Source: a virus
Lineage: Duplodnaviria; Heunggongvirae; Uroviricota; Caudoviricetes
Virus record (IMG/VR): IMGVR_UViG_2537561977_000030
Location: 1 to 24,811 of that record
Reading direction: 5' to 3' (one strand)
Length of the DNA stretch: 24,811 nucleotides
Within the stretch, counting starts at the first letter, position 1. Each line of letters opens with the position of its first letter. Shown here one piece after another: positions 7,522 through 24,811 of the stretch. A model generated the notes under the pieces. It saw nothing but the letters and a program-made list of their open reading frames with translations. It was not told the DNA's origin and made no database searches. A program made the translations under genes and the position numbers.

Positions 7522-7553
7522 GGGGGGCAGTATTGCCCCCGGAAGGGAACGCC

Positions 7554-7574
7554 GATATTAAAGGCGTTTAAGAA
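7554..7574 (-). promoter_or_regulatory. Conserved 21-bp motif, copy A (candidate activator-dependent late promoter)
   Basis: GATATTAAAGGCGTTTAAGAA on the plus strand is 19/21 identical to 13346-13366. On the minus strand it reads TTCTTAAACGCCTTTAATATC, containing a TAATAT -10-like hexamer with no good -35. Confidence 0.4.
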
Positions 7575-7577
7575 ATC

Positions 7578-8090
7578 TCAGTGCGAGTGATGATTAGAGT
7601 TCTGACCATCAGACAGCATACTACCTGTCGAGTGGGCATTACCGTTAATTTCAAGGTCGCCATTCACCGTGGTGGTGTCAGCAGTCAAATCAATGGTTTT
7701 CCCCTTCAGGCTGATACCCACTGCAACCTCGATCACCACATGCTCAATACCTCCTTTGACCGTCAGCGTATGGGTCGCGCGGTTATAACTGAACTCCGCG
7801 CCATCCGCGTATTTCGTGCCCCGGACGTTTTTATCACTGAACGGCGGTTTATCGACGTCTGAGTACACCGCGCCCAGAATGACACCATCCTCGCCGTTGG
7901 CATCGAGCAGCACCTCAACCTGCTCCCCCACGTCAGGGAGCCAGTAATCCTTGTTATCCTGGGTATTGCGCTGCAGCACGTTAAGCCAGTTTGTGCGCAG
8001 GTTATCGCATTCAGGCAGACGAACGCGGGCCTGAACCCTGTCGGCATCAACGGCACTGACCGTACCGACCTGACGGGTGACACCTGTCAT
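7578..8090 (-). CDS. Baseplate spike/assembly protein V (P2 gpV / Mu gp45-like)
   Basis: 170-aa ORF with V-family-like sequence; position between D-like and W-like genes. Confidence 0.7.
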   Translation of the reverse strand: MTGVTRQVGTVSAVDADRVQARVRLPECDNLRTNWLNVLQRNTQDNKDYWLPDVGEQVEVLLDANGEDGVILGAVYSDVDKPPFSDKNVRGTKYADGAEFSYNRATHTLTVKGGIEHVVIEVAVGISLKGKTIDLTADTTTVNGDLEINGNAHSTGSMLSDGQNSNHHSH

Positions 8091-8106
8091 TTTTTCTTCT
8101 CCTTAA

Positions 8107-9240: not shown

Positions 9241-9443
9241 GGGGCAATATCCTCTTCTGTGCGGGCATCTTCAGCCTCAATAACCGGGATCAGTAACAAC
9301 ACCCCGGAGGGCAGCACCGGCGTAATGGCCACGTGCGGATTGGCGGCAATAATCCGGGGATAGCCCAGCGGGTCACCGTAGTACTGCCATGCCAGCGAAT
9401 CCCAGCGCTCTCCGTCACGGGTAATATGTTCAAGAAACATCAC
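9228..9443 (-). CDS. Tail protein X (small, LysM-like)
   Basis: 71-aa ORF between the U-like and D-like genes, overlapping both. Confidence 0.6.
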   Translation of the reverse strand: MMFLEHITRDGERWDSLAWQYYGDPLGYPRIIAANPHVAITPVLPSGVLLLIPVIEAEDARTEEDIAPWLR

Positions 9444-10324
9444 ACACTCCTCGTCAGTATTCTGGCGGCCATTGCACTTAATCCCGGAGACATGCGGTTG
9501 AATGCTGTGCCAGCGGCGTTAAGCTGCCCGGAAACGGTATCCAGAGCACCTGCAATATTTCTTTTGTCCACACCACTCAGCGCAGACTGCGCTTGCTGTA
9601 CATACGTGGCTGCCTCACTGGCTGTTCTGGCCAGACTGATGGCTTCGGGCATGGATTCAGAGAGTGCATTAAATGCCGGAACACTTTTCCCCAGAGCTCC
9701 GGATATATTACCCAGTCCGCTCATCAGTCCCGGCACACGGGTCAGTGCGACAACGGGGTTACCCTTCATTTTCTGCGCCACCCGAACAGCACTGATAGTG
9801 GTCTGGAGTACAGACTGCGCCTGTTTCGCACAGTTGACGCCGTTACGGACGAACTGCGCCACCCCGGAAGGCGATGGAACAGCACCAGATACGGCCCCGG
9901 CACCGGGAACCTGCCTGCGTATTGCCGGCGGTTGCAGAGGATTTTTCGGGTCACCGGTGTATTCCCGGAGAGACACGGTGGCACTGACAGCCAGCACGTT
10001 ACCGGTGCTGTCTGTCTGCTCACTGGTTGCGGTCACATCGGTAATCACGAACCAGCCGCGATAGTCACCGTTGCCGAAGACCAGTGCCAGTGCCTGATGG
10101 GCCTTCATGGCTGTTCGCACTCTCGCCAGCTCCACGTCGGGCACACAATAATGCTGATGGAAGACCAGGCTTATCTGGATTTCGTCCAGCCTGTCGCCGA
10201 CGAACTGCAGGCCGGGTTTACCCCCGATGCGGGCATGCTCCGCATAATCGACGCCGGACGTGGCCTCGAAGCCGTCCCAGTAGGTAATCAGCTCAAACTC
10301 AATATCACCCAGTACGGCAAACAT
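9440..10324 (-). CDS. Tail protein (P2 gpU-like / Mu N DNA-circulation N-terminal type)
   Basis: 294 aa; N-terminal FAVLGDIEFEL...RIGGKPGLQFVGDRLDEIQISL... resembles the gpU family. Start shares a base with the tape-measure stop. Confidence 0.55.
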   Translation of the reverse strand: MFAVLGDIEFELITYWDGFEATSGVDYAEHARIGGKPGLQFVGDRLDEIQISLVFHQHYCVPDVELARVRTAMKAHQALALVFGNGDYRGWFVITDVTATSEQTDSTGNVLAVSATVSLREYTGDPKNPLQPPAIRRQVPGAGAVSGAVPSPSGVAQFVRNGVNCAKQAQSVLQTTISAVRVAQKMKGNPVVALTRVPGLMSGLGNISGALGKSVPAFNALSESMPEAISLARTASEAATYVQQAQSALSGVDKRNIAGALDTVSGQLNAAGTAFNRMSPGLSAMAARILTRSV

Positions 10325-12801
10325 CAGCGGTACTCCTTACGTTGTTTCTGAGCCAGCAGACGCTCCAGCATTTTTTCCAGCTCATGCAGGCTCATATTCA
10401 GGGCTCCAGTCAGCCCGGCAGGCGCTGCGGTTTCCTTACCATTGAGGAAAAACTGAGGATTAAAGCTGACCTGGATACCGCCAGACGCTCCACCGCCAGT
10501 TGCAGTTGCGCCACGGCCTGAATATCCGGCAGCCATGATTTCCGGCGACGGGATACGGGGAACATCCGGTGTCATTTCAGCGGCCAGGCGCTGCCCGGCC
10601 AGTGCAGCAAGCGGAGTGGTTCGCTGCAGGCCAATGGCGGCACCCTGCGCGATATTGTCACCAAAGCCCATAAACACGCGACTCGGCGAATGGATGCCCA
10701 GCTTTTCGCTGAACCAGTCACTGATGCTGTCACCCATTCCGGTTACGCTGGTTTTGAGCGACTCCCATTTGTTTCTGATGCCATTTATCAGCCCGTCGAT
10801 AAGATGACCACCGAAGTCGGTGAACTTCGCCGGCAGATCAACGCCGAGATATTTCAGCGCAGCCGCAAAGGCTTTATAAAGCAGCCCCGCCGGAGACCAG
10901 TTAACCAGCAGTTTACCAGTTCCCGCGATGCCGCCGTTAAAGGCTTCCTGAATGTCAGCCCAGCGCTGTTTAAACCAGCTACTGACTGCGCCCCAGTTGT
11001 GGTAGATAAGGTAAGCTGCTGCCGCAACGGCGGTGATAACGAGACCGATGGGATTCATCATCAGCGCCCGGCCAATCCAGAGAACGGCGCGTGCAGCAAT
11101 CATAAAACCGCGAACGAGGCTGCCCGTCAGAACTTTGCTGAGTTTCAGTCCTCCGCGGGTCAGTCGGCTGAATCCAGTGACAAGCCAGCGTAATTTGCCA
11201 CCTTCTCCGAGTGCGGTAGTCAGTCGACGCCAGTTGGTCCGGAGTAAAACAGCAGTTTTCCAGACGTTCACAAAGGGGGAAATAAGAAGATTCAGCCCCA
11301 GTTTGAGGCCAATAGTCGCTATCTTAATCGCAAGGAGCGCACTGATGAGCTTAAAAGCCCCACTGACAAATTGCGGGTGAGTCGCCACCCAGTGTTTTGC
11401 CCCCTGAATGAGTGGGATCAACTCCTGTGCCAGAGAAATAAAAGAGGGGGCGAGCTGATCGCCCAGCGTAATAGCCAGATCGCGACTGCTGACCATAAGC
11501 GCTTTAGTGGCTTCAGAGGGAGATTTCAGCCGCTGATCGTAAGCACTGGCAAGCAAATCGTTATCCGCAGCCCTGAGGGCACCGGCACGAATCTCGCGGT
11601 ACCTGTCCATGTTGGCCAGCATCGGGCGGATAAACGCCATGACCTGCATATCCGCGAACATATCGCCCAGACCAAAGTTTTTTGCCAGAGCCTGAAGTGC
11701 CTCATCTCTTGCCGTATCATTTTTTATTTTCATGGCGGATTTGAACCCGGCCAGAGCTTCGGGGCTTTTTGTATTGAGGTAACGCTCTATAACACTCAAC
11801 ATCCCTTCAATCGGAGAGATCCCCGCAGCCTTATAACTCGCAATAGATCCCTGCAAATCAATACCCAGGTCAGCAAACTGTTTCTGAGTATCGCGGGCAA
11901 AAATTTTGGTAAGAAAGTTTTTAAAGTTATTGGCCGCTTCGTCGGTGGAGCCCGCACCGATTTTTGCTATCTGGAGACTGGCCCCGATTTCAGCAACAGC
12001 CTCTTTTCCACTGGCAACGCCCGCCATCATTGGGGCCAGGGACTGCATCCATTTGACCTGATCCGGAATTTCAAATGACCCCTGATCACCGGCATAAGCC
12101 ATAATATTCTGGACGGCACCAAAATCTCTGGCGGCACCTTTCAGGGAGTTTTGCCAGACAGCGGCCACTTTTGCCCAGTCCTGAGATGACGTGCGTGTTG
12201 CCGTTGCCGCGCGGGCAATATCCGGCATCAGAAAACCGATATCTGACAAGTTATCAATATTGTCGCTGATGAGCGAACCCACCGCCTCCTGCAGCTCATC
12301 CTGATACTGATTGTATTTAAGTGCCCAGCCTTTTATCTGTCCGGCAAGTGCATCCCGCGTTTTATTGTCATATTTTGCGGTGATCGACATATCAATCATT
12401 TTGTCCTGAAAAGACATGGACTGCTGAACGGCCGGGGAAACCGTATGATAAACAGTCTGTGTCATGCCATACGCTTCAAGTCCCTGACCATACAGCGCCA
12501 TGCGGTTAGCTTTCAGCGCATCACTGGTCGCTGATGCCGCTGACAGGCGGCGCTGCTGGCGCTCAATTTGCTCCATGGTGCGGCTTACCCGCAGCAGCTC
12601 GCTGTTGAGACGCTGCATCCGGGAAGAACCCAGTTGACCATAACGTTCTGTTGCACGGGTTAAAGCGTTCTGACGTTCCTGCAGGCGGCGTGAGGTATCG
12701 CTCAGGGAATCAAGCGCACGGCGGGTACCGCTCATTGCAGAACGGAATGTGCTGCCAATCATCCCGCCGATAACAACGCCGACTGAAAACTGTCCCGACA
12801 T
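10324..12801 (-). CDS. Tail tape measure protein
   Basis: 825-aa ORF with an alpha-helical, Ala/Gly-rich central region and hydrophobic segments, placed between chaperone and baseplate genes. Confidence 0.85.
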   Translation of the reverse strand: MSGQFSVGVVIGGMIGSTFRSAMSGTRRALDSLSDTSRRLQERQNALTRATERYGQLGSSRMQRLNSELLRVSRTMEQIERQQRRLSAASATSDALKANRMALYGQGLEAYGMTQTVYHTVSPAVQQSMSFQDKMIDMSITAKYDNKTRDALAGQIKGWALKYNQYQDELQEAVGSLISDNIDNLSDIGFLMPDIARAATATRTSSQDWAKVAAVWQNSLKGAARDFGAVQNIMAYAGDQGSFEIPDQVKWMQSLAPMMAGVASGKEAVAEIGASLQIAKIGAGSTDEAANNFKNFLTKIFARDTQKQFADLGIDLQGSIASYKAAGISPIEGMLSVIERYLNTKSPEALAGFKSAMKIKNDTARDEALQALAKNFGLGDMFADMQVMAFIRPMLANMDRYREIRAGALRAADNDLLASAYDQRLKSPSEATKALMVSSRDLAITLGDQLAPSFISLAQELIPLIQGAKHWVATHPQFVSGAFKLISALLAIKIATIGLKLGLNLLISPFVNVWKTAVLLRTNWRRLTTALGEGGKLRWLVTGFSRLTRGGLKLSKVLTGSLVRGFMIAARAVLWIGRALMMNPIGLVITAVAAAAYLIYHNWGAVSSWFKQRWADIQEAFNGGIAGTGKLLVNWSPAGLLYKAFAAALKYLGVDLPAKFTDFGGHLIDGLINGIRNKWESLKTSVTGMGDSISDWFSEKLGIHSPSRVFMGFGDNIAQGAAIGLQRTTPLAALAGQRLAAEMTPDVPRIPSPEIMAAGYSGRGATATGGGASGGIQVSFNPQFFLNGKETAAPAGLTGALNMSLHELEKMLERLLAQKQRKEYR

Positions 12802-12876
12802 AGTGGTTAACCTCCGGGGAAGGTGAAAAGACGTGGGGGGATAACGCAGAACAGCCGCTGCTGGCGGCTGTCTGTA

Positions 12877-13134
12877 CTATGATTTGTCGCCGTACTCGCT
12901 TCTGATTTGCTCTTCAGCCTGCTCCAGCCACATCTCCAGATCGTCAGTATCGAGGGCATCAATCTCCCCCGGCTGAAACCTGAACCACCTTGCCAGCAGC
13001 CCCTGCGCCTGCGTCAGCGCCTTCGTTGCTCTCACCCATCCCCGTGACGAGCTGAAATCGTTTCTGCAACTGCAGGTAATCAGCCAGGTCCATATTGTCG
13101 AGATCTTCCGGGAGAAGACCAGTACTGCGGGCAA
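12877..13134 (-). CDS. Frameshift-extension ORF of the tail assembly chaperone (E'-like)
   Basis: Overlaps the chaperone ORF in the +1 (equivalently -2) frame and ends just before the tape measure, the position conserved for chaperone frameshift products. Confidence 0.5.
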   Translation of the reverse strand: MPAVLVFSRKISTIWTWLITCSCRNDFSSSRGWVRATKALTQAQGLLARWFRFQPGEIDALDTDDLEMWLEQAEEQIRSEYGDKS

Positions 13135-13294
13135 TCAGCGGTTCGTCCCAGTCAGCCGGGTTTTTGCTGATTTTACGTACTTGCTTCAGGTCTTTGACCG
13201 TCAGACGTTTCAGTTCAACCAGCTCAATTCTGGTGCCTGCAGCAGTGGTGAAGGGATAAGACAGCGTAAAAATATCGGATGAGGTCTGTGACAT
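12959..13294 (-). CDS. Tail assembly chaperone (P2 gpE / Mu gp41-like)
   Basis: 111-aa acidic ORF directly upstream of the tape measure; AGGAG 7 nt before the ATG. Confidence 0.65.
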   Translation of the reverse strand: MSQTSSDIFTLSYPFTTAAGTRIELVELKRLTVKDLKQVRKISKNPADWDEPLIARSTGLLPEDLDNMDLADYLQLQKRFQLVTGMGESNEGADAGAGAAGKVVQVSAGGD

Positions 13295-13345
13295 GATGTG
13301 CTCCTGTGTAAGTTCAGGGCAGTATGTCGGGAGAAGCGCGTGACG

Positions 13346-13366
13346 GATATTAAAGGAGATTAAGAA
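13346..13366 (-). promoter_or_regulatory. Conserved 21-bp motif, copy B (candidate late promoter upstream of the chaperone gene)
   Basis: GATATTAAAGGAGATTAAGAA; on the minus strand it follows the hairpin at 13371-13384 and precedes the chaperone ATG by about 50 nt. Confidence 0.4.
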
Positions 13367-13370
13367 GAAG

Positions 13371-13384
13371 GGGCCGGAGCCCCT
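13371..13384 (-). terminator. Hairpin followed by a T-rich tract on the minus strand, downstream of the 73-aa ORF
   Basis: GGGGCCGGAGCCCC has a 5-bp GC stem and is followed on the minus strand by TTCTTCTT. Confidence 0.4.
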
Positions 13385-13390
13385 GTGATG

Positions 13391-13612
13391 TCAGCAAGTG
13401 CGAAAACCCTTGCAGTTACGCAGGAAAGCGATGAGAAGCGTCTTTCCCTCCGCTTTGCCTGTGCCGGAGAACCAGTGGTCGGGCGGCTCCCATGCTTCAA
13501 TCAAATCGGCCAGTTTGCGGGCCTTTGAACGTGTGCAGTCAATCGGGTCATTGGTTTTACGGGTGTTACCCCCCGGAATATCAAGGAGGGTAAACCACGT
13601 ACCATTTGACAT
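13391..13612 (-). CDS. Hypothetical 73-aa protein between tail tube and chaperone (possible moron)
   Basis: ORF only; weak ribosome-binding site; has its own downstream hairpin; sits where this tail-module layout normally has no gene. Confidence 0.35.
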   Translation of the reverse strand: MSNGTWFTLLDIPGGNTRKTNDPIDCTRSKARKLADLIEAWEPPDHWFSGTGKAEGKTLLIAFLRNCKGFRTC

Positions 13613-13663
13613 GCCCGGTGACGCACAGCGCCCCCCCTTTGTCAGTCAGTTCAACGCTCACCG

Positions 13664-14185
13664 TCAGCCCCCGATATTGATACGGTAGTCAGTCAGCTGG
13701 TCAACGCCACCGACCCGGAAGATGTTGGCCAGATAGTCCAGTTGCAGCAGCTCTTCACCATCCAGTACCTGTCTGATATACGTGCAGGTGAAGCTACTGG
13801 AGAACTCGGCGTTCTCGTGCTGTTTGAACGTCCCCAGCGGGTTCTTCTTGAACATAATCGTCAGGAAGGTGACCAGCGGGATTTCGTCGATCAGCCCCTG
13901 CGAACTGTAGCGCTGGACGCTTGAGCGACACTGCAGCGCCAGCGACCTGTACGGGTTCGCGGCAGACAGCATCGCATCGCGGTAAAAGCTGTTCCATTTG
14001 ATTTCGCCTTCCAGTTTGTCAAAACCAGCCGGGAGTTCCACCTTACCCACCATCCCCAGTGCCTTGTGTTCCTGCATAATCATGGAGACATCGGGGAGTT
14101 TAACTTCCTCAGCCCGTCCCAGCAGGTTAGTACCATCCAGATAGATGTTGGCATTCGTGATTCGGTTTATCTCAATCTTTGACAT
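13664..14185 (-). CDS. Tail tube protein (Mu gpM / P2 FII-like)
   Basis: 173-aa ORF immediately after the sheath gene; start shares a base with the sheath stop. Confidence 0.8.
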   Translation of the reverse strand: MSKIEINRITNANIYLDGTNLLGRAEEVKLPDVSMIMQEHKALGMVGKVELPAGFDKLEGEIKWNSFYRDAMLSAANPYRSLALQCRSSVQRYSSQGLIDEIPLVTFLTIMFKKNPLGTFKQHENAEFSSSFTCTYIRQVLDGEELLQLDYLANIFRVGGVDQLTDYRINIGG

Positions 14186-15618
14186 CAGTTGCCCCCTTTC
14201 AGGGTTAACAGGTATTCCGAGGTGATCTCCGTCTCATACGTCAGCCGCTCCAGCGGTGGCGGCGGCGTGTATTTGTAGCTCAGCAACAGGTGACCGGCGG
14301 CCAGCTCCGTCTCCGGATTGCGGGCCGGATCAAACCAGCAACGGAAGCCCAGTACCGCACCATCACCAGTCATTTTGCGACCGTAGGCGTTGACCGACTC
14401 CGTCAGTGCATCAATCAGCGCCTGAGTAATCGGCATGTCGATGTACTGCTGGCTGAAGTAACGAATGGACTCGTTGATCACATCACCGGTGCGGCGAACG
14501 TTCTCAAAGTTACGCATATGGGTGACCGTTGGCCATGCTGCCGTCCGGTTACCCCACAGACGAAGGCCGCTGCCGTAACTGCTGAATACCGTGGTGATCC
14601 CCTGTTCGTTAAGCAGGTTCACCTCGCTCTGCGGATCGTCAATCATTGCCGACAGCTGGCGCTCCACGCCGGTGATCCCCAGAATTTCCTGATTGGAGGA
14701 TGACCACCAGTACCCTTTGTCCAGGTCGACTCTGGCACGCAGGCCCGCCGCACGCTGGCTCAGTGGCTCCAGACGCTCCGTGTTTGTCACCGGGTCATAT
14801 ACCTTCACATGCGGGTAGCACAGGCGGACACGGTCAGAGCTGGTATTGAAATTAATGGTGCCTTCCGGGCCACGTCCCGCCAGAGCCTGCGCAAAAGTGG
14901 TACCAACCGGCGCATCAATATAGGTTACTGCTCCCAGTTTCTCAGCCATGGCGATAAGCTCAACCGAGACGCTGTTCTGGGTGCAGAATACCGGCGCAAT
15001 CAGGATTTTGGCGAAGTAGCCAAACAGGTTAAAACTGTCGTTAAGCAGCTTCATGCCGGTACGGTTGCCCGCCGCGTTAACGGCACCGATGATATCAGCC
15101 GGGGTGACTCTGGTCGGATCAGCATAGTTATAGCTGGCCTTCACCGTTGCATCTGCAGCAATGCTTTTACCCAGGTTAGTAATCACCCCGGTCTGTGCAT
15201 CAAGCGAGTAGTCCTGACCTTCAACATAAGGCTGACCGTCGCTGTCCGGTTTCAGTACCAGCTGCGCGACCACCGGATTAGCCAGCCGGGCTCTGCCTGT
15301 CGCCTTGTCGAACGACACATTCTCACTGACCACAGCGGTTTTATGCACAGACGGATCGAGTACGTTAATGACCAGAACGGTGCCTGCACCATGGTCATAA
15401 ATCGCATCCAGCGCCTGCGGAATGGTAAAGCCGTTGAACTGGCTGCCAAATGCTGCAGCGTCTTTCTCAGACAGGCACTGTACCAGCGTATTGACATCCC
15501 CCATTGGTGCGGTACCAATCAGGCCAATAACGGCAGATTTCACCGTTTTAACCGGGCGGGCACCGTTTTCCACTTCAATGGTTTCGGGACCATGCAGATA
15601 GTTAGCTGACATGGGCAT
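14185..15618 (-). CDS. Contractile tail sheath protein (Mu gpL / P2 FI-like)
   Basis: 477-aa ORF with sheath-like sequence, upstream of the tube gene. Confidence 0.85.
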   Translation of the reverse strand: MPMSANYLHGPETIEVENGARPVKTVKSAVIGLIGTAPMGDVNTLVQCLSEKDAAAFGSQFNGFTIPQALDAIYDHGAGTVLVINVLDPSVHKTAVVSENVSFDKATGRARLANPVVAQLVLKPDSDGQPYVEGQDYSLDAQTGVITNLGKSIAADATVKASYNYADPTRVTPADIIGAVNAAGNRTGMKLLNDSFNLFGYFAKILIAPVFCTQNSVSVELIAMAEKLGAVTYIDAPVGTTFAQALAGRGPEGTINFNTSSDRVRLCYPHVKVYDPVTNTERLEPLSQRAAGLRARVDLDKGYWWSSSNQEILGITGVERQLSAMIDDPQSEVNLLNEQGITTVFSSYGSGLRLWGNRTAAWPTVTHMRNFENVRRTGDVINESIRYFSQQYIDMPITQALIDALTESVNAYGRKMTGDGAVLGFRCWFDPARNPETELAAGHLLLSYKYTPPPPLERLTYETEITSEYLLTLKGGN

Positions 15619-15856
15619 CCTCCGTTTTCACCTCGCTGTCACCGCCGTTCCTGCGCTTTGGTGACTGCACAGCCGGTGTGCCGGCGGGTTTAGTTTCTTC
15701 AGATACCGGCGTCAGATGCTTCAGCGCCACCAGTACCTTCACGTAGTCATGCTCCTCCGGCAGGGAAACAGTCTTCCCCGGCCAGAGCAGGATTTCGGTT
15801 CCGTCCGACAGCGTGACGCCGCTGGCCGGGCCGGAATAGCGGTATTCTTTCATCAC
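15602..15856 (-). CDS. Hypothetical small protein (head-tail joining region)
   Basis: 84-aa ORF overlapping its neighbours in operon fashion. Confidence 0.5.
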   Translation of the reverse strand: MMKEYRYSGPASGVTLSDGTEILLWPGKTVSLPEEHDYVKVLVALKHLTPVSEETKPAGTPAVQSPKRRNGGDSEVKTEDAHVS

Positions 15857-16317
15857 TCGCTTTCCTCATAGTTCACTTCGGTTAACAGCGGGCCGGACGG
15901 TAAATCGCTGTCTTCGATAAAGACGCTTTCAGTCGCGAAGTCGAGGGCGTATTGCCAAAGCCCCCTGACTTCACCGATAAACACCTCGCGGGTCAGCCAG
16001 ATACGGCGGCGGCAGCCGGGCGGAGTGTGGCCACCGAGAATGCGGCGGACAGCATCCAGGACATTAATCGCCCCTTTTTTACCGTTGAGCTGGCGGAAGA
16101 CCACCGTGACGCAGAGCTGGATAGTCTGAGGCTGGATCACCGCACCGGTATCATCCGGCCTGTCGAAACGCGATCCTGCATAGCTCAGCAGCAACGCCCC
16201 GACAGAATGATTGAGGCGATATTCGGACGGCTTTTCCGGGAAGTACTCAACCTGCAGCTGAGGCAGCTTCTCGCGTAACCGGGCCAGTACCGCATCAAGG
16301 ACGGGCAGAACATTCAT
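15853..16317 (-). CDS. Mu gp37-like protein (DUF1834-type)
   Basis: 154-aa ORF in the position of Mu gp37, overlapping neighbours. Confidence 0.55.
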   Translation of the reverse strand: MNVLPVLDAVLARLREKLPQLQVEYFPEKPSEYRLNHSVGALLLSYAGSRFDRPDDTGAVIQPQTIQLCVTVVFRQLNGKKGAINVLDAVRRILGGHTPPGCRRRIWLTREVFIGEVRGLWQYALDFATESVFIEDSDLPSGPLLTEVNYEESE

Positions 16318-16763
16318 CAGTATTTCTCCAGTAAGCCGTCACGACCGCCGAAAGTGGCCGGGCGGCTGCGTACACGAAACTCTCCTGGCTCAGGCACATC
16401 TTTCTGAGTGGACGGCAGCCCCAGCGTAAGCCTGTTATCACGTAACTCCTTCAGTTGCCGCAGCGCTTCTTTGTGGTCATCCTTCACCGTATCCGGGAGG
16501 TCACCTTCCGGGCGGCGGGCGTAGAGCCGGTAACGGACCAGCGTGATGGCAATGTCCCGCAGAACGGTCGGTATCTCCGCCAGCGGCAGGATATAGCGTC
16601 CGCGCAGATGGGCATCAATCAGCTCGTCGGCATAGCGGATACAGCTCTCCACCACACGGGTATTCACTGTCGCAGGCGAGTCGAAGTCCATCTCTTCACT
16701 GGTGAGCTCGATCAGCGTTCGTTCCGGCACCTGCTCAAGCAAATCCTCCAGGGTGCAGTACAT
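16317..16763 (-). CDS. Mu gp36-like protein (DUF1320-type)
   Basis: Starts at the ATG at 16763 (MYCTLEDLLEQ...), 1 nt after the upstream gene's stop. The longer track ORF to 17033 overlaps the upstream gene and is rejected. Confidence 0.6.
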   Translation of the reverse strand: MYCTLEDLLEQVPERTLIELTSEEMDFDSPATVNTRVVESCIRYADELIDAHLRGRYILPLAEIPTVLRDIAITLVRYRLYARRPEGDLPDTVKDDHKEALRQLKELRDNRLTLGLPSTQKDVPEPGEFRVRSRPATFGGRDGLLEKY

Positions 16764-16764
16764 G

Positions 16765-17103
16765 TCACACCCCGCGCAGGATACGAATGACGTCGCCTTC
16801 ACCCCCGGCTTCATCAAGTGCAATACCACAGGATTTACCGTCGCCGGACTGCGGCACGGCTCTGGCCTGAGCATCTGACTGAACAGCCACACCACTGCTG
16901 ACCGCAGCACCGGCCTCAACAGCAATAATGCCCAGAACGCTAACCGGCGTACTGTCGCCGGTAACAGCATCCACTTCGGCAACCCCGAGCGCTGCGGCAC
17001 CGGCTTTACAGGGGGTATTATCTGCCCCGACAAAACGCTGCTGTGCCAGTTCTGCCCCTGCCGTTACGGTTGTGATCAGAATGACCTGCTGAGTGGTTCC
17101 CAT
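16765..17103 (-). CDS. Small Ala/Gly/Val-rich head protein (DUF2190-like, possible decoration protein)
   Basis: 112 aa; strong Shine-Dalgarno TAAGGAGG 4 nt before the ATG; composition typical of DUF2190-type proteins. Confidence 0.5.
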   Translation of the reverse strand: MGTTQQVILITTVTAGAELAQQRFVGADNTPCKAGAAALGVAEVDAVTGDSTPVSVLGIIAVEAGAAVSSGVAVQSDAQARAVPQSGDGKSCGIALDEAGGEGDVIRILRGV

Positions 17104-17112
17104 AACGCCTCC

Positions 17113-17484
17113 TTATTTACTGATACCGGTGATGAGATACCCGGCATCGCCACCCACCACGGCGACTTTGTAGATATCGGTATAACGGCAGTACTTCACC
17201 TTGCCGCCGGCCCCGTCGTATTTGTCTGCAACAGGCATCCCCTTACGACGCAGGGTGTAGCCGAAGGACGGCTCGTTCTCGTCCGCGCTGTCCGCCCCGA
17301 CGGCACGCTCGGTGTCATATTCCACAAAGGCGGTTTTTCCGAAGGTCGGTACACGCACGCCTTCCTTGTCCGTCAGCACGACGGGGAAAATACGTTCGCC
17401 GATGAATGCAGCATTTTTATAGCCACGGGCGATACTGGTCAGTACCGGATCAACGACACGTTTACCTTTTAAGTAATCAGACAT
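17113..17484 (-). CDS. Hypothetical 123-aa head-region protein
   Basis: ORF between the protease/scaffold and the DUF2190-like gene; no family recognised. Confidence 0.45.
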   Translation of the reverse strand: MSDYLKGKRVVDPVLTSIARGYKNAAFIGERIFPVVLTDKEGVRVPTFGKTAFVEYDTERAVGADSADENEPSFGYTLRRKGMPVADKYDGAGGKVKYCRYTDIYKVAVVGGDAGYLITGISK

Positions 17485-17498
17485 GCTCTCTTCTTAAA

Positions 17499-18614
17499 TT
17501 ACAGGCAGCGTGCGACAGCAGCCTCATAGCTGATGCCTTCTTTTTTCGACAGGGCCACTGCTTTCTGATGCAGGGCCAGACGCTCAGGATCGGCTTCCGC
17601 AAACTCCGCCACATCCACCTTCACCGCGTCGCCGACACGATCCTTTGTGGCCTGTTCGGCGAAGTTCATCACCGGCTCCCCGTCGGAGAGCAATGAACGG
17701 AAGGCGGTGGCCAGCGGTGTGCGGCTTTCCCCCTCAGCAAACTCCACCGGCTTGTCGCCACCGGCGACGGCATCCAGCAGGGCAACCACCACGGAGGAGG
17801 CGCGGGGAGCCAGACGACCCTCTGCGACCAGTTTTTCTGCAAAGGCCACATTGTCCTTATGCAGTTGCTCCTGTCTGGCCTGTGCATCACGCGCATCGCG
17901 ATCAGCAGCCTGCTGCTTCAGGTGGCGGTTCTCCTCCTGAAGGGCTTCAATCTCTTCTTTTGTCATCGATGATTCCTCGTTACTTGCGGAAGACGGCACA
18001 TGGCCTGTCTCACTGAATTGCGCACCTGCTGCATCCTGCGACGGTGTGTCGCGGTACGCCTCTTCGCGCAGACTGTTGAGCTGCCATTCCGGCAGGACTT
18101 TTTCTGCCTCGTCCAGACTGAAGCGGGCGATCAGAAAATCGCGCAGCTTTCCCCACAGTGAGGCATTCGTGATGGCCTGCCAGTCGGCGAACTCCACCAC
18201 ACCTTCTTCCTGCTCACTGAAGGACACCTGTTTCAGCCCTTTGACGGAAGGTGGCTGTGCCCCGAGAAAGCCCACATGGCGCAGGTAGAGTACGCCGGGC
18301 TTCGGATTGGACGGTGAATCCGGGAGGTAAAAAGAGGCGGACACTTTTTTGAATCGTCCGTCGGTGACCATCTCAGCAAACTGCGGGTCCAGTTGGGCAG
18401 GCTCTGCCATCAGATCGACGCCGCTGAGCGACAGGGTTTTCACCCAGCCCCACGCCGGGTCTTCCGTTCTGGGATGACCAATCACGAGTGGTGCTTCATG
18501 GACGGACGGGTCATAGGCTTTCACGCAGGCGGCAAGATCGTCTGGCGTGAACGGCAGTTTTTTGCCGTGCATATCGGTATGAGTACCGGCTTTAAAAATG
18601 TGAATGGCTGACAT
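17499..18614 (-). CDS. Head maturation protease/scaffold (Mu gpI-like)
   Basis: 371 aa; an N-terminal protease-like domain and a charged coiled-coil C-terminal half (EEIEALQEENRHLKQQAADRDARDAQARQEQ) typical of scaffolds. Confidence 0.65.
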   Translation of the reverse strand: MSAIHIFKAGTHTDMHGKKLPFTPDDLAACVKAYDPSVHEAPLVIGHPRTEDPAWGWVKTLSLSGVDLMAEPAQLDPQFAEMVTDGRFKKVSASFYLPDSPSNPKPGVLYLRHVGFLGAQPPSVKGLKQVSFSEQEEGVVEFADWQAITNASLWGKLRDFLIARFSLDEAEKVLPEWQLNSLREEAYRDTPSQDAAGAQFSETGHVPSSASNEESSMTKEEIEALQEENRHLKQQAADRDARDAQARQEQLHKDNVAFAEKLVAEGRLAPRASSVVVALLDAVAGGDKPVEFAEGESRTPLATAFRSLLSDGEPVMNFAEQATKDRVGDAVKVDVAEFAEADPERLALHQKAVALSKKEGISYEAAVARCL

Positions 18615-18828
18615 TTTGCTGTCCCGCGTTATGTTGTCGGAGACAGTTTGTGAGAAATGCAGGCCCGGCGATTTTAATCTGCTTTAGAAAACATCAGGGG
18701 AGAAGGACAGGGAAAGCAATGCGGTGAACCGGAGGCGGTTATAAAACAGAGGCTGTAAAGCCTTTATAAAGGTAATACAGCCCCTCAGTTGCTGGCAATG
18801 ATAAATCACCCGCCTGAAGGGAGAAACC

Positions 18829-19287
18829 TCAGCGACGGGCCGCTGATTCAAGATGGCGGACAATGGTATCGAGGATGGGGATTACCACTTCAGGCTGTAG
18901 TTCTCCATCCCCCGTCACCGGCAGGAACGGGCGGGCCGGAAGTTCAACGGACTCATTACGCCCCGTTTTACCCCCGAACTGGTGAATGGCACCGTAAACA
19001 ACGTTGGTCCCCACAACAGCCTGCCGGTCGTCATGGTCGGTTGATACTGACCCCATCAGACGCCCGGTATCCTGCAGTGTCTGTCCGTCACGTTCTTCCG
19101 CTGCCAGCGAGGGCATCCACCCCGGACGCCCCTCATCAAGAAAGTTAAACTGTGTTTCCGCCAGCAGGGTTCCGGCGATTTTGCGCATCGCGGGCTCCAT
19201 GTCTGTGGCAGCAAGATCCAGCGCACGGAGGCTCCGGCGCAGGGAGTCATCGTTAATGGAGATACTGACCAGATTGTCGGAAGCCAT
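18829..19287 (-). CDS. Virion morphogenesis protein (Mu G-like)
   Basis: 152-aa ORF directly downstream of the F-like gene; size and position match Mu G. Confidence 0.6.
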   Translation of the reverse strand: MASDNLVSISINDDSLRRSLRALDLAATDMEPAMRKIAGTLLAETQFNFLDEGRPGWMPSLAAEERDGQTLQDTGRLMGSVSTDHDDRQAVVGTNVVYGAIHQFGGKTGRNESVELPARPFLPVTGDGELQPEVVIPILDTIVRHLESAARR

Positions 19288-19289
19288 TG

Positions 19290-20111
19290 TTATCCTCTCA
19301 GTTCCTGTTGTGCCAGTGGCTGAAGCGTACCCTGATAGCGGGCAAGGTCGGGACGGTATGCTGCCCCCGGTGCATAAGACCAGCCGACGTCGGTGGTCAC
19401 CTTCGTGGTGCCGGTATTAAAGGTGGCCACGTTCCGCATTTCGCCGGTTTTCTCTGAGACCAGTTTCAGTTCATGGCCCATGGCAGAGCCGGAGCTGATA
19501 ACCTTCAGGCCACGGGCACGTACATCCGCCGCACTCAGGGCAATCACACTACAGCGGCAGCGCCAGCCGTTCGGCGGGTAAAATGCCTGCCAGAACGGGT
19601 CATCCCAGCGCAGCACCAGACCATGCAGCGCCAGATGGCTCCTGCGGGTATGGCTGTCGTTGATGCCGGTATACATCCAGTACGGCCTGTCGTCGACGTT
19701 TTCCATCTGTTCCGCCCAACGACCGGCGCTGTAGAGTACGGACATATTGGTGCGAAAGATGGTATCGAGCCGCCACGAACTGCCCTGCTGAATGGTGACC
19801 GGCTCACCCGTTACCGGGTCAGTCGTGTCACTCGGTCCCCACCATCCCCTGCGCTTCAGCGCCGGCTCCAGCTCCTGCCGGAACCAGCGATCGGTTTTTC
19901 CTTCATCGACAGCCTGCTGCAGTGTCCCACGAATATCTTCCAGGATATCCAGGCGGGTCACTTTAGCGACGGTAAAGGCGCGGGCATGGGCTTCCTGCCA
20001 CATTTCTTCCCAGTCCCAGGTAATCTGATACCCTTTGGACTTCAGGTAGCTGATTGCCCGCTTCGGGGGAAGCGTCATGCAGTACGCCAGTTCAGCCGTT
20101 GTCACGCTCAT
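19290..20111 (-). CDS. Head morphogenesis protein (Mu F / SPP1 gp7 family)
   Basis: F-family-like sequence. Likely ATG at 20111 with a GGGGG ribosome-binding site; the track start at 20138 is TTG. Confidence 0.75.
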   Translation of the reverse strand: MSVTTAELAYCMTLPPKRAISYLKSKGYQITWDWEEMWQEAHARAFTVAKVTRLDILEDIRGTLQQAVDEGKTDRWFRQELEPALKRRGWWGPSDTTDPVTGEPVTIQQGSSWRLDTIFRTNMSVLYSAGRWAEQMENVDDRPYWMYTGINDSHTRRSHLALHGLVLRWDDPFWQAFYPPNGWRCRCSVIALSAADVRARGLKVISSGSAMGHELKLVSEKTGEMRNVATFNTGTTKVTTDVGWSYAPGAAYRPDLARYQGTLQPLAQQELRG

Positions 20112-21108
20112 GCAGACGCCCCCAGATATTTGCCACAAAGAGAATGCGGGCCAGCCGTTCCTGCAGATCGTCCGTGTTCATCTGAGGGTAGAGCTCCGCC
20201 AGTTCGCCCAGCAGCTCAGACGGGTTAACCCCATTTTCGACCCGCTTAAACAGAGGTGCCAGGACGGGTTCCAGCGTGCCATTTAACGCGCCTCCGTTCA
20301 TCAGAATGTCCAGCGCGTCGTCAAGCTGCTGCTGAGCCTGAATATCGGCATCAATCGCCTCGGCAAATGACAGCGGCAACATGTTCTTCTCGCGTTCTGA
20401 CGGTGGTGTCTCGTCAATATCGCCGTCCTGCAGCTGGTACTCACGCTTAAAGTATTGCGGGGTCAGACGCAGACCCGCCCGGGTGAGTTTTTCGTCGCGG
20501 GTGGCACGGGTGTCATCAATGGCCTCCTGTTCCCACATGGCCCAGACCGGACACGGCACATCGCCGAAGTTCAGGGTGACCACCGTTCTGATGACCTGAT
20601 TCACTGCCGCCTGAATGATGTCCGCATCCGCATCGCGGATATCAGCCGTTACCTCCAGCCCGGCCTGTGCAGAGGCCTTGTTACTGTTCGCTTCCGTGGT
20701 CTGATTCTGACCGAGTAATGCAATGGAGATCTCACTGCGTGACAGCGTGATCAGCTCGCGGAATACCTCGCTGCTGTCCGCCTTGCCATCCGCGGCTTTG
20801 AGTTCGATGCTGCTGTCATCGGGGATGGCGGCCACCGCGTCCTCCACCATCTGCTCCATGGAGTCCAGCAGTTTTTCAATCTCTGCATCATTTGCACCCC
20901 TCGGGTGCTTACCGATCACCCACGGGGAGCCAAACTTTTCGGCAAAGCGGAGCCAGAATTTCATCCCGCCTTTCTTGAAGGCGACCGGCCAGAAGCACAT
21001 GGACAGATCCGGAAAACCGTAAGGATTGTCATAGGATGCATCCTGTGCCGGCACCACGAATTTTGACGGTGACAACAGCTCACCCTCCACACCCGCATCA
21101 CGTGCCCG
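20092..21108 (-). pseudogene. Portal protein (Mu gp29 / DUF935-type), N-terminally truncated remnant
   Basis: About 335 codons where DUF935 portals run about 500. An in-frame stop lies immediately upstream at 21109-21111, and there is no credible start or ribosome-binding site. Confidence 0.65.
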
Positions 21109-21145
21109 TCATGGAATTCTCCCGCCCTGACAGGGAGGACTCGCA

Positions 21146-21418
21146 ATGATTACCCCACAGGAAGCACGACAGCGCACCCGAACCCTTGTTGAACACTATG
21201 TCAACGAGTGTGAATACCGCGACCTCACCGATGTGAAGCACGTCCTGACGGCGCTAATCAGCATGGCCGCTCAGGCCATTGTGGCGACCAACGGAAAGGC
21301 GGCTGCCCTGCAGGTACTGGTGAACACACTCACCCACACGGCAGAGCATGAGGTGCCGTACCGGATGGAAACCACTGCAGAAGGCGGCCTGCACATCACC
21401 GTCAGCCGGAAGCACTGA
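21146..21418 (+). CDS. Hypothetical 90-aa protein
   Basis: ATG preceded by GGGAGG; first gene of a plus-strand operon. Confidence 0.55.
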   Translation: MITPQEARQRTRTLVEHYVNECEYRDLTDVKHVLTALISMAAQAIVATNGKAAALQVLVNTLTHTAEHEVPYRMETTAEGGLHITVSRKH

Positions 21419-21427
21419 GGGCGCGGC

Positions 21428-21724
21428 ATGACACGAAACACCGAACTCACCCGCACCGCCCTCTACCGTCTGGCCCTGCAGCGTTTCGGGCCGGACGCAC
21501 AGGCCCTGAAACTGACAGAAGAGGCCGCTGAACTGGCGGCCAGTGCTGCCCGCAATCTGAACGGACAGGGCAGCGAAAGTGACCTCGCGGCAGAGCTGGC
21601 AGACGTGGAAATCATGACAGAGCAACTGCGCCTTCAGGGGATGGACCGGCTGATTGACTTCCACAAACAGAAAAAACTGGAACGTCTGGCTGCACGACTG
21701 GGCGTGATTTACACGAACGAGTAA
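21428..21724 (+). CDS. MazG-like nucleotide pyrophosphohydrolase (small, phage type)
   Basis: 98 aa with an EEAAELAASAA...ELADVEIM arrangement matching the EExxE...ExxD metal-binding pattern of the MazG/HisE-like fold. Confidence 0.55.
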   Translation: MTRNTELTRTALYRLALQRFGPDAQALKLTEEAAELAASAARNLNGQGSESDLAAELADVEIMTEQLRLQGMDRLIDFHKQKKLERLAARLGVIYTNE

Positions 21725-21738
21725 CCGGGAGGCATTCA

Positions 21739-21955
21739 ATGGCTGACATACTCAGGGAAATCACCGCATGGACACTGATTCTTACTGGCCTGGCGACATG
21801 CCTCAGTACGGGGGGCAGCCCTGGCTGCCCTGCTGATGCACATAACAACACAGTGGTTATGGGAAAAGCTTAAAGCAGCATACAGCCTGAAAGAGCTGTC
21901 CGACGCTGTCCGGGCATGGAAACGGCAGAAAAATACCGGAGATACTGAACAATGA
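21739..21955 (+). pseudogene. Small membrane-protein gene apparently frameshifted at a G6 run
   Basis: ATG at 21739 with a GGGAGG ribosome-binding site reads MADILREITAWTLILTGLA... The downstream frame, which ends in a TGA overlapping the next gene's ATG (ATGA), is reached by removing one G from 21810-21815. Confidence 0.35.
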
Positions 21956-22635
21956 CAGATCAGAATAAACACATTGAGAAACTGAAAAAGTTGCTGGCGC
22001 TGGCTGCATCCGGCAACCCGCACGAGGCCGCTCTTGCACTGCGCCGTGCCCGTAAACTGATGGATGTTCACGGCATCACACATTCCGACATAGCCATGAG
22101 TGATATTGATGAAACCATCAGTCACTACTGGCCGACAGGCAGCCTCCGTCCACCGCGCTACATGCCAGGCCTGATGAACATCATCCGCGAGGCATTTGGT
22201 GTTAACTCCATCATTCACCCCGGCACATATCCGGGTGTGGGGTTCTACGGCAACCGGGAACGGGCCGCACTGGCTGCGTACACCTGGGAGGTGCTGGCCC
22301 GCCAGTTGAAAAAGGCGCGTCAGCAATATATCAGCGCACAGAACAAAAGAATAAAAACTGCCACCCGTACCAGCCGTGGTGACCAGTTTGCTGAAGGCTG
22401 GGTGCTGGCCGTTATCAGTGAAATACAGTCCTTCGCCCTGACCGATGACGAACGTGAACTGATGCAGCAGTGGCTGGAACATAAATACCCGCAAACGCAA
22501 ACCACCAGGGCGCGTAAACCGGGAAGAAGTCGCAATGGCGACGCCTCGCGCTATGCGGGGTTTCGTGAAGGGCAGAACGTCAGACTGCACCGCCCGGTCA
22601 GTGGGCAGGAACAACAGAAACTGGAGGCCAGATGA
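21952..22635 (+). CDS. DUF2786-like domain protein
   Basis: 227 aa; N-terminal KHIEKLKKLLALAASGNPHEAALALRRARKLM motif as recalled for DUF2786; ATGA start overlap with the upstream gene. Confidence 0.5.
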   Translation: MTDQNKHIEKLKKLLALAASGNPHEAALALRRARKLMDVHGITHSDIAMSDIDETISHYWPTGSLRPPRYMPGLMNIIREAFGVNSIIHPGTYPGVGFYGNRERAALAAYTWEVLARQLKKARQQYISAQNKRIKTATRTSRGDQFAEGWVLAVISEIQSFALTDDERELMQQWLEHKYPQTQTTRARKPGRSRNGDASRYAGFREGQNVRLHRPVSGQEQQKLEAR

Positions 22636-22862
22636 TTACGCTATCAGGTAACAGCCGGAAATTAAAAGCCTGCCGAATATCTGCCAGATACCTTTTTGCC
22701 CGCGCCTTTTTTAAGAACGTCAGGCCGGGGATCACAATTGGTGTTATTGCCGGACGCGAACAGGTTGAAAAATACATGTCAGGTGCATGGTGGAATAACG
22801 ACCCTGTCATTGCTGCCCGTAATATTCATATCAGTTGGGGGGATATTCAGAATGACTGCTGA
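22632..22862 (+). CDS. Hypothetical 76-aa protein
   Basis: ATG overlaps the upstream stop (ATGA). An alternative frame (22696-23067) overlaps, so the assignment is uncertain. Confidence 0.35.
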   Translation: MITLSGNSRKLKACRISARYLFARAFFKNVRPGITIGVIAGREQVEKYMSGAWWNNDPVIAARNIHISWGDIQNDC

Positions 22863-23067
22863 ATCTGTTGTATGTGCCCTGTTCTGGTATTGTTTTGTCG
22901 GTTGGTGTACTGCTGAACTGCACCGCCGTTCAGGGTTTTATTCACGTTACAGTGGTGCCAGCTACTGGATTAGCTGGTCGGTGATGTTCCTGTGCTGGCC
23001 TGTGGCGCTTCCTTTATATGTCGATTATATCGGTGGCGCAGGTAAAAGGAGCAACGATGATGACTAA
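22852..23067 (+). CDS. Small membrane protein (71 aa, two predicted transmembrane segments)
   Basis: ATG at 22852; hydrophobic stretches VVCALFWYCFVGW and WISWSVMFLCWPVALPL. Confidence 0.4.
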   Translation: MTAESVVCALFWYCFVGWCTAELHRRSGFYSRYSGASYWISWSVMFLCWPVALPLYVDYIGGAGKRSNDDD

Positions 23068-23509
23068 ACAACGTCTTATCCAGCTCATTCATATTGCCCG
23101 TAATGAACTGGGTATGGATGAAGACACCTACCGCCAGATGTTACAGGGGCTGACCGGTAAAGCCTCAACCAAAGGAATGGATACCACACAACTAAACTGC
23201 GTGCTGGAATCCATGAAAAGGAAAGGCTTTCGCGTTAAGCCTGCCGGAAAAGCCAGCTCCGGTTTACCGCTGGATAACCATCCGCAGTCCAGGAAAATCC
23301 GTGCGCTATGGCTTGAAATGGCTGCTGCCGGCATTGTTCGTGACCGTTCAGAAAATGCATTAGCGCGGTGGATCAAGCGGGAAACGGGCATCAGCGCCCT
23401 GCGCTGGCTCAATACTGAACAGGCAAGCAGTGTTATTGAGAAACTGAAGAAGTGGCAGCACAGAGCTGCGGGAGTAAAACATGAGCGACCTGAATCAGTT
23501 TCGAAGTAA
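23057..23509 (+). CDS. gemA: GemA-like protein (Mu gp16 family, DUF1018)
   Basis: MMTKQRLIQLIHIARNELGMDEDTYRQMLQGLTGKAS...MKRKGF...SRKIRALWLEMAAAGIVRDRSENALARWIKRETGISALRWL matches the gp16 family pattern; AAAGGAG before the ATG. Confidence 0.75.
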   Translation: MMTKQRLIQLIHIARNELGMDEDTYRQMLQGLTGKASTKGMDTTQLNCVLESMKRKGFRVKPAGKASSGLPLDNHPQSRKIRALWLEMAAAGIVRDRSENALARWIKRETGISALRWLNTEQASSVIEKLKKWQHRAAGVKHERPESVSK

Positions 23510-23867
23510 AGGGCCGGAACTCCTGGTGGAGCTGGCACAGCATACCTCTGAGACCGTTCGCGAGATTATTGATATTGAGCCCGAAGTTGCCGACCAGATT
23601 GGTCAGGCCGTCGCGAACCGCATGATGCAGGTCTGGGGCGGGCAAAACGTTTATTTTCCTATGGGGATGAGATGGAAGATAAGCCAGCGTGACCGTGAAA
23701 TCTATGAGGCGTTTAACGGACGTAACCACCACGAACTGTCCCGCAGATTCAGGGTTTCAGTTCCCTGGATTTACAACCTGGTGAAGCGCGTAAGAAAGGA
23801 AGAAATCAGCCGGTTGCAGGGGCAGTTATTCGAAGACGATGATGAACCGGATGACAGCCGGGATTAA
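23481..23867 (+). CDS. mor: Mor/C-family transcriptional activator (Mu middle operon regulator-like)
   Basis: 128 aa; C-terminal GGQNVYFPMGMRWKISQRDREIYEAFNGRNHHELSRRFRVSVPWIYNLVKRVRK matches the Mor/C helix-turn-helix region; directly follows the gemA-like gene, as in Mu. Confidence 0.8.
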   Translation: MSDLNQFRSKGPELLVELAQHTSETVREIIDIEPEVADQIGQAVANRMMQVWGGQNVYFPMGMRWKISQRDREIYEAFNGRNHHELSRRFRVSVPWIYNLVKRVRKEEISRLQGQLFEDDDEPDDSRD

Positions 23868-23931
23868 TCAAAAGCGAGGTGATAATGCGCTATAAAACCC
23901 CCAACAGCGCCCCCCCTGAAGAAGGCAGACC

Positions 23932-24123
23932 ATGCAGATATGGCGATGGAAATTATCCGGCATTTTTTTTGACGGTCTGACTTCTGCTGAGGCGAGATAT
24001 GTTCTCCGGGAATGCGACAGGCTGATTGACAACTCGCGCCTGCATATCGGGCCTGATGAAAATTGTGTTTTGTATTACGGGAAAGTTTTACGTAACCCAC
24101 CACCACCGCCACCAAAGTGTTAA
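23932..24123 (+). CDS. Hypothetical 63-aa ORF ending in a proline run
   Basis: ORF only; region contains C7 and T8 homopolymers and a second short ORF from 23886 in another frame. Confidence 0.25.
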   Translation: MQIWRWKLSGIFFDGLTSAEARYVLRECDRLIDNSRLHIGPDENCVLYYGKVLRNPPPPPPKC

Positions 24124-24153
24124 CGAACGTCAATAAATTCCCGGTTTATGAAA

Positions 24154-24184
24154 AGCGCAATGGATAACCTGTTGCGCTTTTTTT
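24154..24184 (+). terminator. Rho-independent terminator
   Basis: Stem AGCGCAA...TTGCGC with an 11-nt loop, followed by a T7 run. Confidence 0.65.
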
Positions 24185-24217
24185 ATTCTGGCAGAAAAAC
24201 ATATCACCGGAGGAAAT

Positions 24218-24811
24218 ATGTTTGATGCATCCTTGCTGAATCTGCCATGGGCAACGCTGGTGACGCTCACCAGTGGTTATATCGGCTATTTTATTGCGAA
24301 CGTGGGGCTGAAGAACCATCACAAACCCATTGAGGTGACGTTTTCGACGCTGATTTTTGGTTTGCTGTCAATGATGGTTTACCAGGCTGTTATGTGGGCA
24401 GGTCTGAATTCGTGGCTGGCGACACCTCCAACACTTCTTTGCGCTTTTGCATACGCTGCATTATGGAGAAAATATGGGCGTAAATGGATGTACAGATTCC
24501 TCAGAAATAAGGATATATCATGGTCTGATGATACCCCCTCTGCCTGGATGCGTATGTTTGATCAACATGGATACTATATCAGCGAGGCGTATGTCTATCT
24601 GAAGAATGGTACTGTGCTGCTTTCTGAAAATCCGGGGAAATTTGAAGGCCAGGCCAGCGGTTCTTTTGTGTTAGGAGTGGAAAAAGACATAGTGATGTAT
24701 GTCACTCATGAAAAAAACCGGGGCGCGATGAATGGATTGAAAAAGATGTTGAAAGTAAAAGCTGGGGAGCGATGGCAACCTATATCCCTGCAGATCAGAT
24801 TGCCATGGTGA
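24218..24811 (+). CDS. Hypothetical membrane protein (197 aa; N-terminal transmembrane helices plus soluble C-terminal domain)
   Basis: GGAGGA ribosome-binding site before the ATG; hydrophobic N-terminus; stop is the last codon of the window. Confidence 0.6.
   Translation: MFDASLLNLPWATLVTLTSGYIGYFIANVGLKNHHKPIEVTFSTLIFGLLSMMVYQAVMWAGLNSWLATPPTLLCAFAYAALWRKYGRKWMYRFLRNKDISWSDDTPSAWMRMFDQHGYYISEAYVYLKNGTVLLSENPGKFEGQASGSFVLGVEKDIVMYVTHEKNRGAMNGLKKMLKVKAGERWQPISLQIRLPW

Follow-up and report, generated by a model that had tools for sequence, protein, structure and literature searches.

The major capsid gene of a defective BcepMu-type prophage of Escherichia coli has almost certainly lost 582 bp between two copies of a 12-bp direct repeat. 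What is left is an in-frame, presumably nonfunctional stump, the product of ordinary prophage decay. The DNA concerned, termed here ‘the window’, is the whole stretch that was analysed: 24,811 nucleotides of one strand, corresponding to positions 1 to 24,811 of the IMG/VR virus record IMGVR_UViG_2537561977_000030. Positions are those of the window unless another sequence is named. The window is part of a Mu-like, transposable, contractile-tailed prophage that carries at least three inactivating lesions, the capsid deletion among them. Below, we describe the remnant and its intact counterparts, the repeat at which the deletion occurred, the haplotypes on which the same deletion is found, and the condition of the prophage as a whole.

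The capsid gene and its remnant

The late genes in the ORF list of the window are all on the minus strand. Read along that strand, the protease/scaffold gene for head maturation (17499-18614, minus; 371 aa) is the upstream neighbour of the remnant. It matches PHROG 976 (E=2e-162), and is annotated ‘peptidase’ in the related prophage of E. coli A33. The remnant itself, a 123-aa ORF of 372 bp (17113-17484, minus), is evident from the ORF list and the sequence. A spacer of 9 nt (17104-17112, minus) separates its stop codon, TAA, from the start of a 112-aa ORF, the DUF2190 or ‘Phage_cement_2’ gene (16765-17103, minus; Pfam PF09956), which appears intact and carries the DUF2190 label in relatives. 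This is followed by the gene for the head–tail adaptor, Mu gp36 or DUF1320 (16317-16763, minus; 148 aa; Pfam PF07030, E=4.5e-38), which is also a gene call in the identical locus L007, and then by the Gp37 gene (15853-16317, minus). The order protease, remnant, DUF2190, gp36, gp37 is the order found in phage PhiKM and in the prophages of E. coli TW14425 and A33. The remnant thus occupies the place of a capsid gene of the Phage_cap_E family, after the protease/scaffold gene and before the genes for head completion.

Neither the ORF list nor profile scans reveal a full-length capsid gene between the protease and gp36 genes, or anywhere else in the window. A sequence-only reading of this DNA had reported that no recognisable capsid gene was present where one is expected. 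With respect to a full-length gene that was correct; with respect to recognisability it was not, in that the profile search it proposed as a check matches the 123-aa ORF to PHROG 1005, ‘major head protein’, with E=1.2e-45. The match falls in two separate stretches, the better of which aligns residues 1-67 of the ORF with positions 2-69 of the 315 in the profile. Scans of the ORF against Pfam and NCBIfam gave no match. The remnant is empty in Pfam because the residues by which intact members of the family match PF03864 (90-203) lie wholly inside the deletion, and it is through PHROG 1005 that the ORF is assigned to the family.

Intact relatives are common. Megablast of positions 15800-18700 found matches in 639 complete E. 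coli genomes and in phage PhiKM. The matches listed were always in two pieces, spanning 3,483 bp in the relative vs 2,901 bp in the window. In the intact relatives, a 954-bp gene encoding 317 aa lies between the protease and DUF2190 genes, and is called ‘major capsid protein’ in some records. Three annotated examples served for comparison: E. coli TW14425 (L001), phage PhiKM (L002; classified Bcepmuvirus) and E. coli A33 (L003). Their capsid proteins (WP_001286909.1, XRL29392.1 and WP_182611818.1, respectively) are encoded by the same gene in the same position as the window remnant, whereas the window copy lacks codons 67-260. Compared with each of the three, the 123-aa protein consists of residues 1-66 joined to residues 261-317 of the 317-aa protein, 194 codons or 582 bp having disappeared in frame. 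The 123 residues retained are 100% identical to those of the intact relatives; the 7-10 nucleotide differences between the genes are all synonymous. To the proposal of the sequence-only reading that the capsid gene might have been lost, comparison with the intact genes adds a qualification: correct in substance, the loss is partial, an internal, in-frame deletion of 582 bp. Synteny, another check that it suggested, places an intact capsid gene in relatives at this very position.

Intact members of the family pass the Pfam profile PF03864 (Phage_cap_E) narrowly, the cut-off being 22.9 bits and their scores 23.6-24.1; it is residues 90-203 that match. Residues 8-313 of the intact protein align with PDB entry 3BJQ (E=1.2e-35), a ‘phage-related protein’ of 316 aa that is thus matched nearly end to end. 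3BJQ serves as a representative experimentally determined HK97-type structure for the Phage_cap_E Pfam family (bioRxiv 10.1101/2021.03.18.436031), and has been termed a bacteriophage capsid (PMC11529989). From this end-to-end homology to a solved protein we infer that the intact protein has an HK97-like fold. In the window protein, by contrast, all that is retained corresponds to the two ends of 3BJQ, roughly its first 68 and last 55 residues. With residues 67-260, to judge from what is generally known of the fold, most of the central helix and of the A-domain has presumably gone.

Of a capsid polypeptide of about 300 aa, then, 123 aa are left, with residues 67-260 of 317 missing. The sequence-only reading had held that a clear HK97-fold match of either small protein would refute its observation; such a match exists in part, in that the 123-aa protein derives from a capsid protein of HK97 type, of which it is a fragment. 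Its ORF descends from a member of the Phage_cap_E family, and is not a functional member. Without the central part of an HK97-type protein, the fusion cannot be expected to build a capsid, and we take it to be nonfunctional as a shell protein. It could still be translated, given late transcription, as its start, its stop and the ribosome-binding site (RBS) downstream are native.

The repeat at the junction and the recurrence of the deletion

The intact capsid gene contains two copies of the 12-bp sequence GGGGCGGACAGC, at nt 187-198 and 769-780, 582 bp apart. Both encode the residues G-A-D-S, in the same codon register. The window gene contains one copy, the sole survivor, at 17287-17298 (minus), and this is the deletion junction. 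The window gene corresponds to the intact gene from its 5′ end to nt 198, plus 186 nt from its 3′ end. Together these come to 384 nt, 12 more than the 372 nt of the window gene, and the alignments overlap in GGGGCGGACAGC. The pieces of the BLAST alignment with the A33 prophage likewise overlap by these 12 nt, at 17287-17298. Two short direct repeats thus bound the missing segment in the intact gene, and one remains in the window. GGGGCGGACAGC apart, the intact capsid gene has no exact direct repeat that reaches 10 nt. Exact direct repeats of 12 nt or more also occur in 6.6% of codon-shuffled versions of the gene, and so the repeat itself is statistically unremarkable.

Among the spontaneous deletions of E. 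coli, those that join two short direct repeats, through slipped mispairing or short-homology recombination, are a textbook class. The capsid deletion has nothing distinctive in comparison with them: perfect 12-bp repeats flank the segment lost; one of the two stays behind; the longest repeat available is the one used; and the event recurs. The anatomy of the repeats suggests that slipped-strand mispairing, or short-homology recombination, took place between the two copies of GGGGCGGACAGC and left one of them in place. The 66 N-terminal and 57 C-terminal residues would thereby have been fused in frame into the protein of 123 aa. The fusion is in frame because the repeats share a codon register and are 582 (3 × 194) bp apart, and selection need not be invoked. 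As the best slippage substrate in the gene, the same repeat would also account for the recurrence of the deletion in this prophage family.

Three other possibilities were considered and set aside. The first is the reverse event, origin of the 317-aa form from the 123-aa form by insertion; the additional 194 residues align with both 3BJQ and Phage_cap_E. The second is that inverted repeats brought the direct repeats together; only one 9-nt pair lies inside the segment, and by our estimate chance alone would give about 1-2 such pairs in a gene of 954 bp. The third, deletion by the Gin-like invertase of the prophage, was rejected on reasoning: the junction is a plain 12-bp direct repeat within coding sequence, and the reading frame of the invertase gene is itself broken here.

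Two versions of the 372-bp deletion allele occur at the nucleotide level, distinguished by 7 synonymous differences. Version B, found in loci L005, L006, L009 and L010, is exactly the PhiKM gene with the segment spliced out. L005 and L009 are 100.000% identical to PhiKM (PQ738613.1; L011) over ~20 kb except for the 582 bp, and retain the terminase, portal and lysis genes. Loss of the 582 bp is the only difference from PhiKM seen in these lineages, and so the lesion must be very recent there. Of 4,286 flanking positions, 23 distinguish L006 from L005, and several complete genomes, EcPF7, MLI121 and N169 among them, contain intact prophages to which the flanks of L006 are 100.0% identical. The window haplotype is more distant, differing from the other deleted haplotypes at 106-108 of the 4,286 positions. 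No intact twin of it was found among the complete genomes, the best match being 98.4%, and hence the parent of the window allele is not in hand. Two of the three deleted haplotypes, on the other hand, have intact twins with 100% identical flanks, from which it follows that the deletion is recurrent. The simplest reading of these comparisons is that the identical deletion on three haplotypes reflects at least two, and probably three, independent events, each of which would have used the only 12-bp repeat.

The same distribution might have arisen from a single ancient deletion that afterwards moved among prophage haplotypes by homologous recombination. All deletion alleles have the same end points and encode the identical 123-aa protein, and L006 and L005, identical for ~900 bp around the gene, could both have been served by one event. 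However, identical end points are expected anyway if the 12-bp repeat is the only one used each time. The window and PhiKM-type alleles differ at gene positions 147 and 258, 40 and 60 nt to either side of the junction at 187-198, and a transferred deletion would require a conversion tract of less than ~110 bp between them, which is less parsimonious. L005 and L009, moreover, equal intact PhiKM over 20 kb, and L006 has an intact twin of its own. For these reasons we regard a single origin as unlikely.

The state of the prophage

Identity to phage PhiKM, the record of which is assigned to Bcepmuvirus, is 97.3%. The late module of the window is collinear with the BcepMu type—Mu F, G, protease, capsid, gp36, gp37, sheath, tube, tape measure and P2-like baseplate—and the Pfam content of the identical locus, L007, agrees with this. 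The A33 prophage, which lies between yicL and nlpA, appears complete at ~38.5 kb. BLAST against it shows that positions 18971-21108 and 21100-24811 of the window match segments of A33 that are 13.2 kb apart. The overlap, 21100-21108 (a junction, without strand), marks a second deletion, of 13,210 bp (25952-39161 of L003), and corresponds in A33 to a near-identical 9-bp repeat, ACGTGCCCG / ACGCGCCCG. With its 9-bp junction, this deletion, too, is like those that occur between short repeats.

The larger deletion has removed the N-terminus of the portal, the large and small terminase subunits, and a DUF3486 (gp27-like) protein; the lysis cassette (holin, transglycosylase and spanin-type genes); and helix-turn-helix or repressor-type regulators, transposase A (annotated ‘integrase’), an ExeA/MuB-like ATPase and Gam. 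The window is not, then, a complete mobile element: its transposase A, MuB-like ATPase, repressor, terminase and lysis genes are all in the 13,210 bp that are missing. The portal gene that remains (20092-21099, minus) lacks its N-terminal third, encoding 332 aa vs 498 aa in A33 and L005, and its match to the Pfam profile Portal_Mu starts at position 116 of 336.

A third lesion is an IS4-family insertion of 1,293 bp (4047-5339, plus) in a tail-fibre gene, identified by NCBIfam NF033591 (E=2.2e-107) and Pfam DDE_Tnp_1. It has terminal inverted repeats, TGAGGAATCCCCAGAAAA / CTGAGGGATCCCCAGAAAA, and on either side of it, at 4036-4046 and 5340-5350, stands the 11-bp target duplication AGGTCAGCCCC; the A33 sequence is uninterrupted at this point. 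The Gin/Hin-type invertase gene (1-581, minus) has one T missing from a run of six, and its frame breaks after ~110 residues, the A33 version being 190 aa long. This could be a real frameshift or a homopolymer error in an old draft assembly. Prophages that are otherwise very similar have tape-measure genes of unequal length—983 aa in L005 (14696-17647), 896 aa in L006 (14697-17387) and 825 aa in the window (10324-12801)—and here, too, repeat-mediated, in-frame changes may have occurred.

Cryptic and defective prophages of E. coli commonly bear several independent lesions in one element. The window prophage is like them in combining a gene-internal deletion, a large multi-gene deletion and an IS, and in its vertical inheritance at one chromosomal site in a clonal lineage. 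Unlike lambdoid or P2-type remnants, it is of the transposable, BcepMu type. The element is a remnant and, judging by its gene content, would be unable to transpose, package DNA, lyse the cell or build heads.

Might the stump nonetheless have been retained because it is useful, either as a dominant-negative protein against superinfecting relatives or as a means of maintaining expression of the downstream cement, connector and tail genes? The deletion keeps the native start, stop and downstream RBS, and it recurs on independent haplotypes, as a useful allele might. The in-frame outcome, however, follows automatically from the 582-bp (3 × 194) spacing of the repeats, and the allele is rare. The exact 123-aa protein is on record in 12 contigs vs more than 1,400 for exact intact proteins (at least 1,000, 449 and 20 contigs). 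When 5,426 complete E. coli genomes were searched with a 120-nt probe centred on the junction, none matched it in one piece; in 606 of these both halves of the capsid gene are present and apart, and the deletion allele therefore accounts for none of the 606. The allele has gained no substitutions since the deletion from which selection might be judged, and with the tail-fibre gene of the window broken by an IS and its lysis genes gone, no useful tail product is expected. Retention of the stump for its usefulness is very unlikely. Equally improbable is a repeatedly selected allele, the stump of which co-assembles with the capsid protein of incoming or co-resident intact phages and poisons their heads (a ‘capsid decoy’, causing superinfection interference).

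Still less probable is that the deletion arose in sequencing or assembly, a full-length gene being present from which 582 bp were collapsed. The window is 100% identical to contig ADUP01000053.1 of GCA_000188815.2, which is a draft assembly and may not be flawless: a homopolymer error could explain the nucleotide missing from the invertase T-run. Against this, the junction is common to three independent assemblies, GCA_000188815.2, GCA_012768515.1 and SRR2994196, and to four further contigs from other lineages. A 12-bp repeat is shorter, moreover, than the k-mers usually used by assemblers. The prophages of GCA_012768515.1 and SRR2994196 are 99.98% identical to the window, and have in common with its lineage the capsid deletion, the 13-kb deletion and the chromosomal neighbours, genes for a PfkB-family kinase and a Na+/H+ exchanger. 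The three assemblies agree on lesions and site, which shows the capsid lesion to be real, and vertically inherited in a lineage. Over positions 7114-24811, the window, identical to L007, differs from the sister assemblies (L004 and L008) by 1 mismatch and 2 single gaps. These differences alter the lengths called in L007 for the gpD-like (377 vs 384 aa) and gpU-like (231 vs 294 aa) proteins, and may be homopolymer errors of the older assembly.

The arrangement of the remnant and the gene that follows it had been described by the sequence-only reading as two small ORFs, of 123 and 112 aa, in the same frame, separated by a single TAA, the second with a strong RBS. The ORF list and sequence confirm this anatomy. 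The minus-strand junction reads ATC AGT AAA TAA GGA GGC GTT ATG; the ORFs are in one frame, a single TAA and 9 nt apart, with AAGGAGG, part of it within the 9-nt spacer, just 5′ of the ATG. The same 9-nt gap precedes the DUF2190 gene as annotated in intact relatives. In this family the layout is simply the native capsid-to-cement junction. The lesion did not produce it, and it is not evidence of read-through. Programmed read-through of the TAA was considered and rejected: an in-frame layout is expected by chance one time in three, all intact relatives have it, and nothing points specifically to read-through. The 112-aa protein matches PF09956 (Phage_cement_2, formerly DUF2190) with E=4.9e-13 and 49.8 bits (cut-off 24) over essentially its full length, residues 8-108 of 112 aligning with profile positions 6-101 of 103. 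A PDB sequence search found no solved relative of it, the hit to PsbQ (E=0.066) being at chance level. The gene encodes the family's ordinary cement or decoration-type protein, in its native position. Many DUF2190 proteins of 112 aa are listed, too, in the cluster to which the intact 317-aa capsid protein belongs at 90% identity. This suggests that a capsid–DUF2190 fusion ORF, the two being in frame and 9 nt apart, has been called somewhere upon loss of the TAA and bridges the families; the mixed cluster may reflect a clustering artefact or a rare stop-loss variant.

The other proposal of the sequence-only reading was an unconventional arrangement. A head built of the two small proteins, or of a fusion made from them by read-through, has the absence of a full-length gene and the same-frame, single-TAA layout in its favour, but is exceedingly improbable: intact prophages of the same family, 95-98% identical in nucleotide sequence in matched stretches, carry a normal, 954-bp gene for the 317-aa protein exactly here, with the same TAA and spacer; the remnant is without residues 67-260, including everything that matches Phage_cap_E; and the prophage is also without a terminase and a complete portal.

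Significance

Loss of 582 bp between two copies of GGGGCGGACAGC, a deletion of a textbook kind, has left a pseudogene that belongs to a known capsid family, and the defective prophage around it likewise belongs to a known family. It matters little beyond annotation. The 123-aa ‘hypothetical protein’ (e.g. EFZ56247.1) should be renamed an internally deleted major capsid pseudogene, and the window prophage should be scored as defective. The deletion allele is a possible marker for sublineages, with the caution that identical deletions held in common need not mean common ancestry. The case is mildly useful in another way. The prophage family occurs in ~11-12% of the complete E. coli genomes searched, and within it one 12-bp repeat, with the identical deletion on at least two and probably three haplotypes, constitutes a clean natural deletion hotspot.
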